From the NCBI GenBank assembly GCA_021786315.1, contig JAJYNN010000002.1, positions 166,160 through 202,401 on the forward strand: DNA of 36,242 bases, written 5' to 3'. The notes beneath the pieces were generated by a model that was not told where the DNA came from, did not search any database, and was given only the letters and a program-made list of their open reading frames with translations. A program made the position numbers and the translations under genes. Origin of the DNA: a bacterium (GTDB lineage: Bacteria > Patescibacteriota > Microgenomatia > Daviesbacterales > UBA10151). Below are positions 1,022 through 25,671 of the stretch, piece after piece. Position 1 is the first letter of the stretch. Each line of letters opens with the position of its first letter.

Positions 1022-1056
1022 AAGGTGACGCCTCGGCGTATGCTAGGCGTCACCTT
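1022..1056. repeat. REP-like palindrome: two inverted AAGGTGACGCC arms around a 13-nt spacer
   Basis: aaggtgacgcc (1022-1032) pairs with ggcgtcacctt (1046-1056). The same core occurs in the hairpins flanking the Y1 transposase gene (24837-24873, 25649-25665) and in the palindrome at 2045-2110. Confidence 0.7.
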
Positions 1057-1085
1057 GTGTGTTGGAAAGTTAAGTTTTTTAGTAT

Positions 1086-1279
1086 GCGTCTTTGGTGGCA
1101 AAGACGCCCAAAGCCACTTTGACGGGAACGGTCCCTAAATTTGTCTGCGGTTTTGTCGGGGGAAAGCTGCCCCCTCGAACAGTTCGTCCGGCATCCCCCT
1201 GACGAAAACCTTGCCAAATTTTTAACGGGCTTGCGTTCCAGTCAAAGAGGAATAGGTCTGTGTTCCTGAGTGGGCAAAG
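1086..1279 (+). ncRNA. Structured intergenic element, copy 1 of 3 (unclassified candidate ncRNA or structured repeat)
   Basis: 5' hairpin gcgtcttt-GGTGGC-aaagacgc (1086-1107). Closing helix ctttgac (1117-1123) / gtcaaag (1241-1247). Inner helix ggttttgtcggggg (1149-1162) / ccccctgacgaaaacc (1195-1210). Alignable with 7741-7950 and 19841-20099, with compensatory changes in the helices. Confidence 0.5.
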
Positions 1280-1336
1280 ATACAGAAAGTAAGTTTTATC
1301 GCAGATTTATTGTGGGTTGGGGAATATAATCAGTGC

Positions 1337-1708
1337 ATGCCAGGGTTGATTGAAGACATTAACGGTCAGGCCAAGGATAACACCAATTTTCGCAAAGTTT
1401 TGGAAACCGGGAAATATACCCAGGTGGTAATTATGAGTATTATCCCGGGGGGAGAAATTGGGGAAGAGGTCCACCCGGATAACGACCAAATACTTTATTT
1501 AGTTGATGGGGAGGGGGTGGCAGTTTTAGACGGAGAGGAAAAACCCTTTGTTGCCGGGGACTTGGTTTTGGTAAAAGCCGGGACAAAACACAATTTTTTA
1601 AACAGGGGGGACAGTCCTTTGTCTATTATTACCACTTACTCACCCCCACACCACCCGGAAGGGACAATTCACCAGACAAAAGAAGATGCCGATAAGGCGG
1701 GTTATTAG
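1337..1708 (+). CDS. Cupin-domain protein
   Basis: Cupin motif pattern G(E)x(V)HPDNDQILYLVDGEG....GDLVLVKAGTKHNF. I prefer ATG 1337 over the TTG at 1310 because TATAAT (1325-1330) lies 6 nt upstream of the ATG. Confidence 0.8.
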   Translation: MPGLIEDINGQAKDNTNFRKVLETGKYTQVVIMSIIPGGEIGEEVHPDNDQILYLVDGEGVAVLDGEEKPFVAGDLVLVKAGTKHNFLNRGDSPLSIITTYSPPHHPEGTIHQTKEDADKAGY

Positions 1709-7740: not shown

Positions 7741-7950
7741 GCAACTTTGGTGGCAAAGTTGCGCAAAGCCACTTGCAGTGAAAGTCGACCTAAAACCTTC
7801 ATCAGTTGTCTAGCGGGAACTTTACCCTTCGGAAATTCGGCTACTTCGTAGCGTCAGTTTCCGCTTTCCCTGCTGCCAACTGACTTGGTTTTTTAACGGT
7901 CTTTGTTTCAATGCAAGGGGAATAGAAGTTTGAGTTCCAGTGGGCAAAAG
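7741..7950 (+). ncRNA. Structured intergenic element, copy 2 of 3
   Basis: Hairpin gcaacttt-GGTGGC-aaagttgc (7741-7762). Closing helix cttgca (7772-7777) / tgcaag (7912-7917). Helices cagttg (7803-7808) / caactg (7877-7882) and cggaaa (7830-7835) / tttccg (7858-7863). Small hairpin gcta-cttcg-tagc (7840-7852). Confidence 0.5.
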
Positions 7951-8114
7951 AAAACTTTATTGACTTATCCACATTAGCAGAAATCCCGGTGGAAAAGAAA
8001 AAGTGTGTCTTGGATTAGGGCTTTAGAACAAGATAAATAGTACCTAGTATCCTCCAAAATAAACTACAAGCCTATGGTTTTTTGCTAGTAAAAAAACTAT
8101 AAGGTTATAAAATG

Positions 8115-18471: not shown

Positions 18472-19830
18472 ATGCCTACGCGTTCATTTAAACCAGCACA
18501 GACTAATGATGATGAGACTAAAGCCCCGAAAGAGGTGGAGGAATTCGTGGGTTCAGATGACCAGAATGTCGGAGTATCAGAGTCTCGGAATAGCGAATCA
18601 GGGGATTCTGACATGCCGGCACGCCGATACTCTGACCAACCGTCCCGTTACGGGAGAGGTGGTTACTCTGACCGGGGATATTCCGAACGTGAGCGGGATG
18701 TGCCGACAGAAGCCGTTTCCGGTGTCTTAGACTTAATGCCGGAAGGACACGGGTTTTTGCGCCCGAAATACACCCCTTCCAACAAGGATGTTTACATCTC
18801 GGCTTCCCAAATCCGCCGTTTTAACATGCGCCCGGGGGATTTAGTGGAAGGTATGGCCAGGCTTCCCAAAGAAAATGAAAGATACCTGGGACTTTTACAG
18901 GTTGATAAAATCAATGGGGTCAGCTCAGAAAAATTTGTTTCCGAGGGGACAACCAAGGTTAAACGGACCCGTTTTGAAGACCTGACTGCCATTTATCCCA
19001 ACAAACATCTCAAATTAGAAACCGGCAAAGCCCCGCTTTCCCAGCGGGTGATCGATTTAGTGGCCCCGATTGGTTTTGGCCAAAGAGGCTTGATTGTGTC
19101 ACCGCCTAAAGCCGGCAAAACCACGATTTTGAAAGATATTGCCGCCGGCATTACCGCCAATCATCCGGATGTAGTTTTAATGGCTGTTTTGGTAGGTGAG
19201 CGCCCGGAAGAGGTGACTGACCTTTCCCGGTCTATCAAAGGTGATGTCATTGCCTCTAACTTTGATGAACCGGCAGAAGCCCAAACAGCAGCCGCTGAGG
19301 TGGCCTTAGAGCGGGCAAAAAGGCTGGTGGAGGAAGGTAAAGACGTAGTCATCCTTTTGGATTCCATTACCCGTTTGGGCCGGGCTTACAACTTATCTGT
19401 TCCGCCTTCCGGAAGGACACTTTCCGGAGGTTTTGATCCGGTCGCGCTTTATCCGCCGAAGAAATTCTTTGGGGCCGCGCGTAACTGTGAAGAGGGAGGA
19501 TCCCTTACTATCATTGGAACAGCCTTGGTGGATACCGGTTCCCGGATGGATGATCTGATCTATGAAGAGTTTAAAGGTACCGGGAACATGGAGCTTCACC
19601 TTGACCGCTCATTGGCGGAAAGAAGGACCTTCCCGGCTATCGACATCGAAGCTTCCGGAACCCGTCAGGAGCAGCTGATGTTTAATGAGGAAACCTACAA
19701 GAAGATGGTGGTCATGCGCCGGATGCTCGGGCTCCTTTCTCCGGGGGAGAGAACCGAAGTATTTTTGGAAAGACTCTCCAAGGCCGGAACTAATGCCGAT
19801 TTCCTCGAATCCCTTAAGGAAGTTAAGTAA
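18472..19830 (+). CDS. rho: Transcription termination factor Rho with a disordered acidic/RGG-like N-terminal extension
   Basis: RNA-binding domain [14 protein letters not shown]...[16 protein letters not shown], Walker [16 protein letters not shown], and C-terminal ...[19 protein letters not shown]. Confidence 0.95.
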
Positions 19831-19840
19831 TTTTTGTATT

Positions 19841-20099
19841 CACGCTTTTGGCCGCAAAAGCGTGGTAAAACTCTGCTCGCAGAAAGTCGCCCTCAGGCTT
19901 TGCCTGGCACTCACTTCGTTCGTACTAAACCTCGTCGTTTTCTAGTCGGGGGCTCACCCCCTCGGAAATTCTCTCGCTTCGCTCGGTCAGTTTCCGGTTC
20001 CCCCTGACAGAAAACTCCTCGGTTTTTAACGGGCTTGGTTTCAAAGCGAGCAAAAATTACGCTCCTAGTGGCTTTGGGCGTCTTTGCCATCAAAGACGC
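19841..20099 (+). ncRNA. Structured intergenic element, copy 3 of 3, carrying an extra inverted terminal module
   Basis: Hairpin cacgctttt-GGCCGC-aaaagcgtg (19841-19864). Closing helix gctcgc (19875-19880) / gcgagc (20046-20051). Helices gttttct..gtc ggggg (19937-19952) / ccccc tgac agaaaac (20000-20015) and cggaaa (19963-19968) / tttccg (19991-19996). The 3' 32 nt (20068-20099) are the reverse complement of 1086-1117 at 31/32 positions. Confidence 0.5.
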
Positions 20100-20121
20100 A
20101 ATCCGTTTTGTGATAAAATAG

Positions 20122-21255
20122 TTGCTGCCTGTGAACTCTTGGCACCGCGACCTTCGAACCTTTATTAAATTCCTGACCACATACCTTAGAAGTAGGGTGG
20201 TGCTGTTTGCCTTCTACTTTGAAAAACTTAAAAATCACCTGGTTGATTTATTAATGTTTAAACGCGGGGCGTTTCAAAAGAAGGCTTGGCATACAAGCAT
20301 GATCGGTCTTTCCGCTGTGGGGATTGTGACTTCCGGCATCTTCGGCTCCCAGACAATTATCTCGTCCTCTTACCCCGGAGTGGGGGGGCAGGATCCCAGA
20401 TTTGTCAACAACTATGTTTCGGAAGTGAGCAAGGATGACCCGGTCCTCAACTCCCTTTATGATACCCATACCAACGTCTCCAATATCCGGTCGGAAACTA
20501 TCGATTATGAGGTTAAAAGCGGAGACACCTTATCGTCAATTGCCAAACAGTTTGATATTTCCATTGATACCATTAAATGGGCCAATGATTTGGACAACAT
20601 TCACAGCATTAAGCCCGGAGAAAAGTTAAAGATTTTACCGATCACAGGTGTAGTCCATACTGTCAAATCAGGCGATACCTTGGAATCTGTAGCCAAAAAG
20701 TACTCAGCTTCTGCCCAGGCCATTATGGATTATCCGTTCAATGATGTTCCGGATGACATGAGCCTAAAAGTTGGCCAGGTGCTTTACATTCCTGACGGAG
20801 CTCCTCCGGAAAAGCCGGCCCCGGTTCGTGCCAAGCCCACATCGTCATACCTGGCTGAAGGCCCGGCTTCGATTACCTTTAGCGCTCCCGGAGGGGGAAA
20901 CTTCATTTGGCCAACTAAAGGAGTACTTACCCAATACTTCTCCTGGTACCATCCTGGGTTGGATATCGCCAACCCCTCGGGGCCGGTGGATGTGGCCTCG
21001 GATGGAGGTCGGGTAGTGGTGGCCGGCTGGCCGGATAATTGGGGCTTTGGCAACCGGGTGGTGATCGACCACGGAAACGGCTATACCACCACTTATGCCC
21101 ACCTTTCCAATATTTATGTTACCGTTGGCCAGGTTGTCTCCCGGGGGCAGCCAATCGGCCAGATGGGTTCAACCGGCAGGTCAACCGGAACCCACACCCA
21201 CTTTGAAATCAGGTACAAAGGCATTGCGGTTAATCCTCTGGCTATTCTAAAATAA
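20122..21255 (+). CDS. LysM (x2) + M23 family metallopeptidase
   Basis: Two LysM domains (YEVKSGDTLSSIAKQF..., HTVKSGDTLESVAKKY...). M23 motifs HPGLDIA and GSTGRSTGTHTHFEI. The start is uncertain: TTG 20122, GTG 20131 or ATG 20254. An extended -10 TGATAAAAT at 20111-20119 argues against TTG 20122. Confidence 0.88.
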   Translation: MLPVNSWHRDLRTFIKFLTTYLRSRVVLFAFYFEKLKNHLVDLLMFKRGAFQKKAWHTSMIGLSAVGIVTSGIFGSQTIISSSYPGVGGQDPRFVNNYVSEVSKDDPVLNSLYDTHTNVSNIRSETIDYEVKSGDTLSSIAKQFDISIDTIKWANDLDNIHSIKPGEKLKILPITGVVHTVKSGDTLESVAKKYSASAQAIMDYPFNDVPDDMSLKVGQVLYIPDGAPPEKPAPVRAKPTSSYLAEGPASITFSAPGGGNFIWPTKGVLTQYFSWYHPGLDIANPSGPVDVASDGGRVVVAGWPDNWGFGNRVVIDHGNGYTTTYAHLSNIYVTVGQVVSRGQPIGQMGSTGRSTGTHTHFEIRYKGIAVNPLAILK

Positions 21256-24836: not shown

Positions 24837-24890
24837 GCAAGGTGACGCCTTGCGCCGCAAGGTGACGCCTTGCGTGGAGCTTGCGTGGAG
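24837..24890 (+). repeat. Two tandem REP-like hairpins plus an 11-nt direct duplication
   Basis: gcaaggtgacgccttgc twice (24837-24853, 24857-24873), then cttgcgtggag twice (24869-24879, 24880-24890). Confidence 0.75.
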
Positions 24891-24930
24891 GCTAAGACGT
24901 TACCTCAAGTTTTCTTGGAAAATTACCGGG

Positions 24931-25617
24931 TTACTCTTCGATTACTAAGGGGTAAATCAAATTTGAGATTTCATTGTTATCTGTTTGCCCTACAAAGGAT
25001 TTATAGGAAAGCTTGGGATTTGTTTGGGAAAAGAATGCCAGAATCTCATCTGGTTTAACCCAAGCCCCTTGATGACTACCCAAATATGCTGGGTAGGAAG
25101 ATGGTTGGCCTTGGCCGCTTAAACTATATTTGTCAAAGGATTGTTTATGGATATAGCGGGAAAGTTCCAAAAGCTGGGCATCTGTTTGGACTAAAACAGC
25201 TTTGTAGGTCCCCTGGTAGAGTGCTCCCACCCGCTTGTATTTTTTATTAAAGTACATGGTATATCTTGTACCTAAAGAGTTCATAAACTTATCAATAGCT
25301 CCGGCACTTTTTTGTTTAACCAAAAGGTGAAAATGGTTGGGCATTAGGCAATAGGCGAGAAGGGTAATATCATCTGCAAAGTTATTCATCCTGATCTGTT
25401 TTCTTAGCCCGTCTCTTTCGGGAATGGGTGTTCGGGGGTTTGCTAATTGTTCCATTAAGGAAACACTATCCTTGGGTGTCAGATAAGTTTTTAGGTAGGA
25501 GATAAAGACTGAATAGTCCTGTTGGTCCTGGAAGATGGAGCGCTTTTCAACCCCTCTATTATATATATGGTAGTAACCCTCTTCGACATATTGTTTAACT
25601 ACATTTTTTGCTGGCAT
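24931..25617 (-). CDS. HUH / Y1 tyrosine transposase (IS200-like or REP-associated RAYT-like), 228 aa
   Basis: YHIYNRG N-terminal motif, HUH motif in LLAYCLMPNHFHLLV, and a catalytic-Tyr context SRYIHKQ. Confidence 0.82.
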   Translation of the reverse strand: MPAKNVVKQYVEEGYYHIYNRGVEKRSIFQDQQDYSVFISYLKTYLTPKDSVSLMEQLANPRTPIPERDGLRKQIRMNNFADDITLLAYCLMPNHFHLLVKQKSAGAIDKFMNSLGTRYTMYFNKKYKRVGALYQGTYKAVLVQTDAQLLELSRYIHKQSFDKYSLSGQGQPSSYPAYLGSHQGAWVKPDEILAFFSQTNPKLSYKSFVGQTDNNEISNLIYPLVIEE

Positions 25618-25645
25618 AATAACAAAATAACATGGATGCTAGCCT

Positions 25646-25671
25646 CGTGCAAGGTGACGCCTTGCGTGGAG
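25646..25671 (+). repeat. REP-like hairpin upstream of the transposase gene
   Basis: cgtgcaaggtgacgccttgcgtggag. It combines the 5' flank of the first downstream copy with the 3' flank of the second. Confidence 0.75.

Follow-up and report, generated by a model that had tools for sequence, protein, structure and literature searches.

An orphan inverted head hairpin downstream of rho probably marks a reduced doublet of a hairpin-plus-rod repeat family in Daviesbacteria

Several families of structured repeats have been described between bacterial genes. The BOX elements of pneumococci, the Correia repeat enclosed elements (CREE) of Neisseria and the enterobacterial repetitive intergenic consensus (ERIC) sequences are non-autonomous repeats of mosaic or modular build which form long stem-loops when transcribed. 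They lie between genes, to which they can contribute terminators or promoters; many variants carry deletions or rearrangements, and insertion of a Correia element duplicates TA. Here we analysed a window of 36,242 nucleotides (the whole stretch of DNA, with positions counted from its first letter) from a Daviesbacteria genome of 780 kb in three contigs, designated G000, in which the window corresponds to G000:C3:166160-202401. It carries three copies of a hairpin-plus-rod repeat composed of a head hairpin, an A-rich linker and a rod of nested helices closed by a helix termed P0. This family is closest in kind to repetitive extragenic palindromic (REP) sequences with their bacterial interspersed mosaic elements (BIME), to BOX and Correia-type repeats and to hairpin-ended single-strand elements, yet it departs from them in several of the properties by which they are defined. 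We determined the structure and covariation of the family, its distribution, and the boundaries of an insertion between rho and a LysM/M23 peptidase gene which contains copy 3 and ends in a second, inverted head hairpin; an intact doublet of two elements was found elsewhere. Copy 3 is probably the remainder of such a doublet, which would have been copied as a unit and would then have lost its second rod.

Like REP and BIME sequences and the REP doublets forming hairpins (REPIN), which are mobilised by Y1 transposases known as REP-associated tyrosine transposases (RAYT), the hairpin-plus-rod elements are extragenic and palindromic, lie at the 3′ ends of genes and are nearly absent between divergent genes. 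They also occur singly or as inverted doublets, lack a target duplication and vary in copy number among relatives. A REP sequence is 20–40 nt long, whereas the element comprises ~190 nt with a head hairpin and a long multi-helix rod; unlike in REPIN, the halves of its doublets belong to different subtypes which do not pair with each other, a cognate RAYT is missing, and genomes with up to 24 copies lack a Y1 gene. BOX, Correia and ERIC repeats resemble the family as modular structured intergenic repeats with rearranged and deleted variants, but the element has neither sequence-conserved terminal inverted repeats (the P0 arms vary) nor a target duplication, is asymmetric with a dedicated 5′ head and is limited to one family of the Candidate Phyla Radiation (CPR). 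It differs likewise from class II miniature inverted-repeat transposable elements, as conserved terminal inverted repeats (P0 is varied, and copy 3 ends in two head subtypes) and target-site duplications are missing. Palindrome-associated transposable elements (PATE), which derive from the insertion sequences IS200/IS605 and move by peel and paste, share hairpin-defined ends, insertion without duplication and strand-specific orientation; the hairpins of the element, however, stand at the very termini and not in subterminal position, and it has no conserved target word and no co-occurrence with Y1. The attC sites of integrons are similar as imperfect palindromes located right after a stop codon in gene orientation, with structure conserved over sequence and conserved unpaired bases, and the motif UUUUUAAC of the element recalls the RYYYAAC box. 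The copies are, in contrast, dispersed among housekeeping genes and form no cassette array; their AAC motif stands in the interior, and a GTTRRRY partner was not apparent at the other end, although no search aimed at such boxes or at an integrase was made.

Members of the family share one layout, namely a G-poor, T-rich tract of ~9 nt (60–80% T in 95 copies), a head hairpin of 9–11 bp, the A-rich linker and a rod of ~150 nt; the whole unit measures ~170–260 nt. The rod consists of nested helices P0–P6. In it, the conserved unpaired motifs CUAAA and UUUUUAAC face each other, a U is bulged out of a G5/C5 helix, a second C-run is conserved and the terminal hairpin varies. R1, a covariance model, was built for the rod. 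In an alignment of 107 copies, 84.9% of the cells were paired as compared with 60.1% after shuffling and ~50% with the partners slid; this alignment was fitted by R1, which favours structure, but the margin is still large and the helices had first been spotted by eye in unaligned sequence. Changes on both sides were found for 40 of the 45 rod pairs in these copies, and covariation was also counted on a smaller set. The P0 arms differ among copies (CTTTGAC, CTTGCA, TGCTCGC, GCCCAC, GGTCAC).

The head hairpin stands at the start of essentially all 107 copies and is followed, again in essentially all of them, by the linker CAAAACTC or a variant. Its inner part is conserved as CTTTTG-loop-CAAAAG; the outer 3–5 pairs covary and define subtypes, among them GCGTC, CACGC, GTAC, GCAAC, CACAC and GATAC. 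For nine loop types the linker offers, at a fixed distance, 3–4 nt complementary to the loop: GTGG with CCAC, TAAC with GTT, GCAG with CTGC, ACAG with CTGT, GGAA with TTCC, GGAG with CTC, TGAC and GGAC with GTC, and TCAG with CTG. The mean loop-linker match was 2.86 versus 2.10 in permuted data and none of 500 permutations reached as high a value, the relatedness of the copies being uncorrected in this comparison. Such complementarity is absent from the commonest loops (NCCG). Head and linker are probably one folded, pseudoknotted module, and the head hairpin and CCAAAGCCAC would be conserved as a block because they form this module.

Rfam at gathering thresholds returned only two tRNAs for the whole window, and a permissive search with copies 1 and 3 gave matches at chance level only. 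A description of a hairpin-plus-rod element for CPR or Microgenomates bacteria was not found in the full-text literature, and the family appears to be undescribed. R1 detected exactly 10 rods in G000, nine on the plus strand of contig C3 (113–238 kb) and one on the minus strand of C1. Rods were present in 42 of 96 genomes of the same GTDB family, representing 23 of 63 genera with 1–24 copies each, and their presence was patchy even inside a genus; none was detected in the same class outside this family, where 16 genomes were searched. As judged from these genomes, the repeat appears restricted to one family of Candidatus Daviesbacteria.

The placement of the copies follows the upstream gene. 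Scoring of neighbours by open-frame heuristics on the flanks placed the upstream gene on the same strand as the element 62 times and on the opposite strand 19 times, compared with 42 and 39 times for the downstream gene. The 62 resolved sites comprise 31 co-directional sense, 15 convergent, 15 co-directional antisense and one divergent arrangement. Where the upstream gene is clear, its stop codon lies 2–18 nt ahead of the head about half of the time. A function as 5′ leader or riboswitch of the downstream gene was ruled out, since three of the ten G000 copies stand between convergent genes and orientation tracks the upstream gene. The copies of G000 are 4–38 kb apart and dispersed among housekeeping genes. 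Within a genome they cluster in one stretch of 45–150 kb, as seen in G000 (C3, 113–238 kb), G023 (C1, 1.015–1.087 Mb, and also at 68 kb) and G089 (C1, 30–75 kb); in G000, GC skew reaches its minimum at ~50 kb, and the cluster begins ~60 kb away from it.

Elements are also joined as pairs. The family search recovered at least seven tail-to-tail doublets with heads outward and 6–60 nt between the rods (in G002, G016, G023, three times in G073, and in G089), and further ones occur on metagenome contigs; paired ends of the kind suspected for copy 3 do exist elsewhere. Doublets were found between convergent genes, and their halves belong to different subtypes with 45–55% identity. At the convergent junction of a membrane protein gene and rplA-rplK-nusG, a single element is located in G000 and G018 and a doublet in G023, G016 and G073. 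Directly after rho, an element was found in G000 and G089, both of the CACGC subtype, and in G075, where it is of the GCAAC subtype.

Copy 3 of the window lies between rho (18472–19830, plus strand, stop codon TAA at 19828–19830; Pfam Rho_RNA_bind, PF07497, and the ATPase domain ATP-synt_ab) and the LysM/Peptidase_M23 gene (20254–21255, plus strand), whose start is MFKRG at 20254 and not TTG at 20122 according to alignment of the N-terminus with G090 and the metagenome contig L184. An earlier interpretation made from the letters of the window, termed here the sequence-only reading, had named the same two genes, and Pfam agrees. The 5′ head hairpin CACGCTTTTG-GCCG-CAAAAGCGTG (19841–19864) is followed by the A-rich linker GTAAAACTC (19865–19873), which corresponds to the linker found family-wide, and by the rod P0–P6, which extends from TGCTCGC to GCGAGCA (19874–20052) and is supported by R1, covariation and a fold z-score of −4.7. 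The rod is interrupted at the P2/CUAAA junction by 33 nt unique to copy 3, which contain a small hairpin CAGGC-TTT-GCCTG; alignment with the closest paralogue, G000:C3:237669, and with L184 places this insertion at 19893–19925, a slight shift from the 19891–19923 proposed before. A spacer of 14 nt (20053–20066) then leads to the inverted head of the GCGTC subtype (20067–20101, minus strand). It is composed of the linker CCAAAGCCAC(T) at 20067–20077 and the hairpin at 20078–20099, and the plus strand reads the hairpin and then AAUCCGUUUU. Open reading frames (ORFs) of 86 and 89 aa at 19685–19945 (plus) and 19911–20180 (minus) overlap copy 3 and are almost certainly no genes; gene callers will mis-annotate elements of this kind by such spurious ORFs.

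The inverted head repeats the beginning of copy 1. The 32-mer GCGTCTTTGGTGGCAAAGACGCCCAAAGCCAC at 1086–1117 (plus) matches 20068–20099 (minus) at 31 of 32 positions, in agreement with the sequence-only reading; the sole difference is a base of the hairpin loop, and the match was reproduced in none of 100 dinucleotide shuffles. The inverted arms reach 34 nt (1085–1118 and 20067–20100, 97% identity). A search of G000 in both orientations with up to 8 mismatches located the 32-mer five times, four times forward as the 5′ end of a full element and once inverted, as the orphan at 20068–20099. A generic hairpin scan detected 10 intact head hairpins, and an eleventh at G000:C3:227171 is broken up by a loop insertion; there are 11 heads and 10 rods in total, and the only head without its own rod is that at 20078–20099. 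The loop of the eleventh head contains a 47-nt multi-hairpin insertion (G000:C3:227171-227241), and the rest of this copy is 98% identical to C3:217353.

The near identity of the two modules had been taken as a sign that the module alone was recently mobile or gene-converted, a conclusion which the wider comparison does not support. The GCGTC-subtype 32-mer is identical at all 32 positions at two places each in G023 and G089, which represent another genus, as well as at six places on metagenome contigs from two samples; the named records with this module are metagenome-assembled genomes of Daviesbacteria or Microgenomates. Heads identical to it stand on full elements in G023, G089 and metagenomes. 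As the 32-mer is identical in another genus, near identity within G000 alone is no proof of recent movement, and this head subtype is simply invariant.

The gene order rho–LysM/M23 is common in the GTDB family. The M23 start is located 146–180 nt past the rho stop codon in many relatives as compared with 423 nt in G000, and a TGnTAnAAT 2–30 nt after the rho stop, with GTGAAYTC 6–10 nt further, occupies the same relative position in at least 20 relatives. The flanks of 19841–20099, namely the pyrimidine-rich TTTTTGTATT (10 nt, 19831–19840), which is the T-rich tract before the head, and AATCCGTTTTG (11 nt, 20100–20110), together correspond to the 21–22-nt spacers of G090 and L184 and also read like a spacer such as TTTGATTCCATC that has been split. 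Because the spacer of the relatives is split by 19841–20099 in G000, both hairpins appear to be the ends of one insertion of 259 bases, whose junction can be placed only within a few bases as the spacers have diverged. The T-rich tract ahead of the head may accordingly be pre-existing target sequence and not part of the element. The sequence-only reading had ascribed ends resembling terminal inverted repeats to copy 3. Two inverted head hairpins do bound the unit, but they differ in subtype (CACGC and GCGTC) and are no true inverted repeats. A comparison of G089 with G023 and G090 of the same genus showed the region 3′ of rho to be rearranged, with no clean empty-site junction readable.

The extended −10 TGATAAAAT noted earlier is present at 20111–20119, followed by the conserved GTGAACTCT at 20136–20144. 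Since TGnTAnAAT stands at the same position in many relatives, it is predicted to be a conserved promoter element of the M23 gene. A different assignment of GATAAAAT (20112–20119), as the reverse complement of the T-rich tract of the inverted head, was rejected because element-free relatives show the same extended −10 there. The ~130 nt ahead of the LysM/M23 gene contain a conserved hairpin (window 20111–20253; rho-downstream regions L127–L155); Rfam gave no match for 20111–20253, and this segment may be an undescribed leader of the cell-wall hydrolase gene. Unrelated insertions occur in the rho-M23 spacer of L130, L131, L132, L133, L150 and L152, that of L131 being a long palindrome and the others AT-rich repeats of the AAAACTTAAAAC type, which indicates that the spacer tolerates insertions.

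An intact doublet was identified on L184, which is syntenic with the window. Protein identities are 74% for rho, 72.5% for M23 and 56% for the product of the next ORF, followed as in the window by a 758-aa gene and a 1748-aa gene on the minus strand. The rho-M23 spacer of this contig is empty, and a complete tail-to-tail CACAC + GCGTC doublet is located ~2.3 kb further on, beside tRNA genes and just past the stop codon of the 758-aa gene. Its left half aligns closely with copy 3 save the 33-nt insertion, and the two are distinguished by compensatory changes in the head (CACAC/GTGTG versus CACGC/GCGTG, a G-C to A-T exchange) and in P0 (TGCTCAC/GTGAGCA versus TGCTCGC/GCGAGCA). The right half is a GCGTC-type member whose head matches window 20067–20103 except for one loop base, and the spacer between rod and partner is 14 nt long, and at the same place, in both L184 and G000. 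The elements are far better conserved between the two than the flanking proteins, yet they stand at different loci. Near-direct repeats, GTGCTTTTG and GTGGCTTTGG, stand on either side of the partner rod of L184, and slippage between them would yield the arrangement found in G000.

Intermediate, shortened forms were also detected. L183 carries a full element, then a partner with a 64-nt mini-rod and the 32-mer. A partner in G023 (L178) is cut to head, linker and the first rod strands (P0/P1) and faces a full element, with an unrelated repeat between them; in G089 (L177) a rod has its interior deleted. A CACGC + GCGTC doublet occurs also in G089 and L180, at yet another locus. A repeat of ~110 nt with the inverted ends ATGACGGGT...ACCCGTCAT lies in or beside elements at three places of G023 (L178 6380–6500, and the downstream flanks L033 and L044).

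Given that the L184 spacer is empty, that its doublet combines the same two subtypes and that its left half is close to copy 3, copy 3 is best explained as a reduced doublet. A normal member would consist of the head hairpin, a linker which in many subtypes is complementary to the loop (here GUGG with CCAC, which would form a pseudoknot) and the ~150-nt rod, and would be placed at the 3′ end of a gene, most often a short way past the stop codon and pointing the same way as the upstream gene. The inverted 32–36 nt at 20067–20101 would then be the head of a second, minus-strand GCGTC member which once formed a doublet with copy 3. We suggest that the unit was copied as a doublet, presumably through folded single strands and without target duplication, and was then reduced; the rod of the second member would have been lost, probably by a slippage deletion across the base of the rod hairpin, so that two inverted hairpins now enclose the unit. 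Read on the plus strand, the remaining hairpin might stop transcription much as a terminator does, a short way ahead of the M23 promoter.

Several observations weigh against this reconstruction. No genome contains an intact doublet at the rho-M23 site, where G089 and G075 hold single elements, and the 14-nt spacers of copy 3 and L184 are alike in length and hardly in sequence. The flanks are too diverged for a base-exact insertion point, and the head without a rod could have been short from the start. The family shows no co-occurrence with Y1 transposases, and no propagating enzyme was pinpointed; neither a target duplication nor a conserved target word was found. Finally, 148 G-U against 111 A-C combinations among the family pairs do not distinguish the strand, or the molecule (RNA or DNA), in which the fold matters.

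An exaptation compatible with the relic origin, though on balance unlikely, is that the inverted hairpin has been kept as an intrinsic terminator or insulator of the plus strand which would halt the rho/copy-3 transcript 11 nt short of the M23 promoter. Its 9-bp stem (five G-C pairs) with a 4-nt loop followed by AATCCGTTTT was scanned as terminator-like and is stable in short- and long-context folds, but the U-run is short and starts 5 nt past the stem, the scan yields 1.1 such sites per shuffled region, and the local fold z-score is −1.25. The hairpin lies exactly at the −35 region of the conserved M23 promoter, and the single difference from copy 1 retains the linker-loop pairing on the plus strand (as G-U) while breaking it on the minus strand (A-C). 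In most relatives, however, the stretch from rho to the M23 promoter is free of hairpins, and single elements elsewhere lack such a 3′ hairpin.

Less probable still is an arrival of the 34-nt module only, by gene conversion or by a replication template switch at AGTGGC/GCCACT, 6 nt of microhomology which the tail of copy 3 shares with the linker of a GCGTC-type head. On this view, a second full element would never have been present. The homology to copy 1 indeed begins exactly at AGTGGC and stops 1 nt beyond the hairpin, and the plus-strand tails of copies 1 and 2, ...TTCC(TG)AGTGGGC, resemble the ...CTCCTAGTGGC of copy 3. Module swaps do occur, as G000:C3:151645 and G000:C1:50787 share an interior of ~99% identity and differ in head, linker and P0. 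On the other hand, intact doublets of the same subtypes and intermediates with shrunken partner rods exist, the module is the end of a whole inserted block, and gene conversion would require an inverted homologue already present at the site.

It is very improbable that the members are stable small RNAs processed from mRNA 3′ ends, with the copy-3 tail acting in trans as a 32-nt antisense to the 5′ heads of the RNAs from copy 1 and C3:151645: strong structural covariation, the co-oriented placement just after stop codons, shared syntenic sites in several genera (membrane protein gene and rplA; downstream of rho) and the 31/32 complementarity would fit, but even genomes of one genus differ in whether they carry the element, members are commonly truncated, internally deleted or interrupted by nested insertions, a close solo tail was seen in one of ~107 copies (330-nt downstream flanks inspected), and no Rfam family matches.

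Copying of elements is indicated by several observations, among them the patchy distribution and the different loci in G000 and L184. Near-identical pairs at separate loci were found in G000 (99% and 98%), G073 (95%) and G056 (93%), and in one G000 pair the interior is ~99% identical while the head, the linker and both P0 strands are completely different, which indicates gene conversion of modules. The recent mobility or gene conversion suggested by the sequence-only reading is borne out by these near-identical copies and swapped modules, but not for the 32-mer module alone. The flanks, which that reading had proposed to inspect for target-site duplications, showed none: for 95 copies the longest direct repeat of the flanks averaged 5.2 nt compared with 5.0 nt in permuted controls. 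A conserved target word of 4–5 nt was not found either. Pairing of the T-rich tract with the 3′ flank into an outer helix was considered and rejected, as it showed no excess over permuted controls.

Mobilisation of the RAYT/REPIN type was rejected because the family does not co-occur with PF01797. Genes of this Y1 family are present in 83 of the 96 genomes; they are missing from 10 of the 42 element-positive genomes, including G073 with its 24 copies, and present in 51 of the 54 element-negative ones. All ten copies of G000 share one polarity relative to GC skew; as most genes share it too, polarity decides no mechanism. One can speculate that the hairpin-plus-rod repeat is a previously unrecognised bacterial mobile element, delimited by hairpins and inserted beside gene 3′ ends, without duplication, through an enzyme other than RAYT/Y1. 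Doublets, among them the one ancestral to copy 3, would then move as composites, the loop-linker pseudoknot would serve as a recognition device, and some copies might have been domesticated as 3′-end or insulator modules. We regard this wider proposal as a tentative one.

CPR genomes are tiny and densely packed, yet this Daviesbacteria family retains up to two dozen copies of ~190 nt, whose fold has been preserved in at least 23 genera through compensatory changes. The build-up and decay of such elements can be followed here as they rarely can: the inverted head fixes the ends of an insertion within a few bases, ties this insertion to the intact doublet of a relative and suggests that rods can vanish while heads persist. 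If the family is mobile without a Y1 transposase, a hairpin-recognising activity is still to be found; if it is transcribed, it would constitute a new class of 3′-end RNA module.

The other two copies of the window lie on the plus strand. Copy 1 (1086–1251) has its head at 1086–1107, its linker at 1108–1117 and a rod extending to 1251 (R1 match G000:C3:167268-167410), and copy 2 (7741–7921) has a head of the GCAAC subtype at 7741–7762 and a rod to 7921 (R1 match G000:C3:173923-174080). Four G000 copies are followed by an AATAG-containing spacer and second 3′ rod strands (GTTCC..AGTGGGC or GTTTC..GCGAGCA) which mismatch their own 5′ strands (window 1252–1290, 7922–7955 and 20053–20066; G000:C3:237850-237883). 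These are presumably partial duplications or recombination scars.

A separate palindrome, AAGGTGACGCC...GGCGTCACCTT, occurs right after stop codons at window 1022–1057 and at ~20 other G000 loci; it stands directly upstream of four G000 copies in exact and of three in variant form. A related word, GCAAGGCGTCACCTTGC, is arranged in tandem near the Y1 transposase gene of the window (24934–25617), at G000:C3:190998-191820 (window ~24840–25660). At G000:C3:151843-151960, a pilin-like gene 3′ of another copy reads ...GFTLISLLLRRKRSCQGFTLIELL, and it appears to have taken up a small hairpin, AAGTCTACTTTTGCGACGCAAAAGATCTTG, in frame, GFTLI being duplicated; the C1 copy has a similar hairpin upstream. 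Genes after several copies show a −10-like TATAAT or TATACT 6–8 nt before the ATG (window 1325–1339; G000:C3:113957-113970 and 151832-151845), and TATACTnnATTTATG is common to two copies with unrelated downstream genes. These hexamers and the shared TATACTnnATTTATG may point to leaderless transcripts or to a promoter carried with the element.

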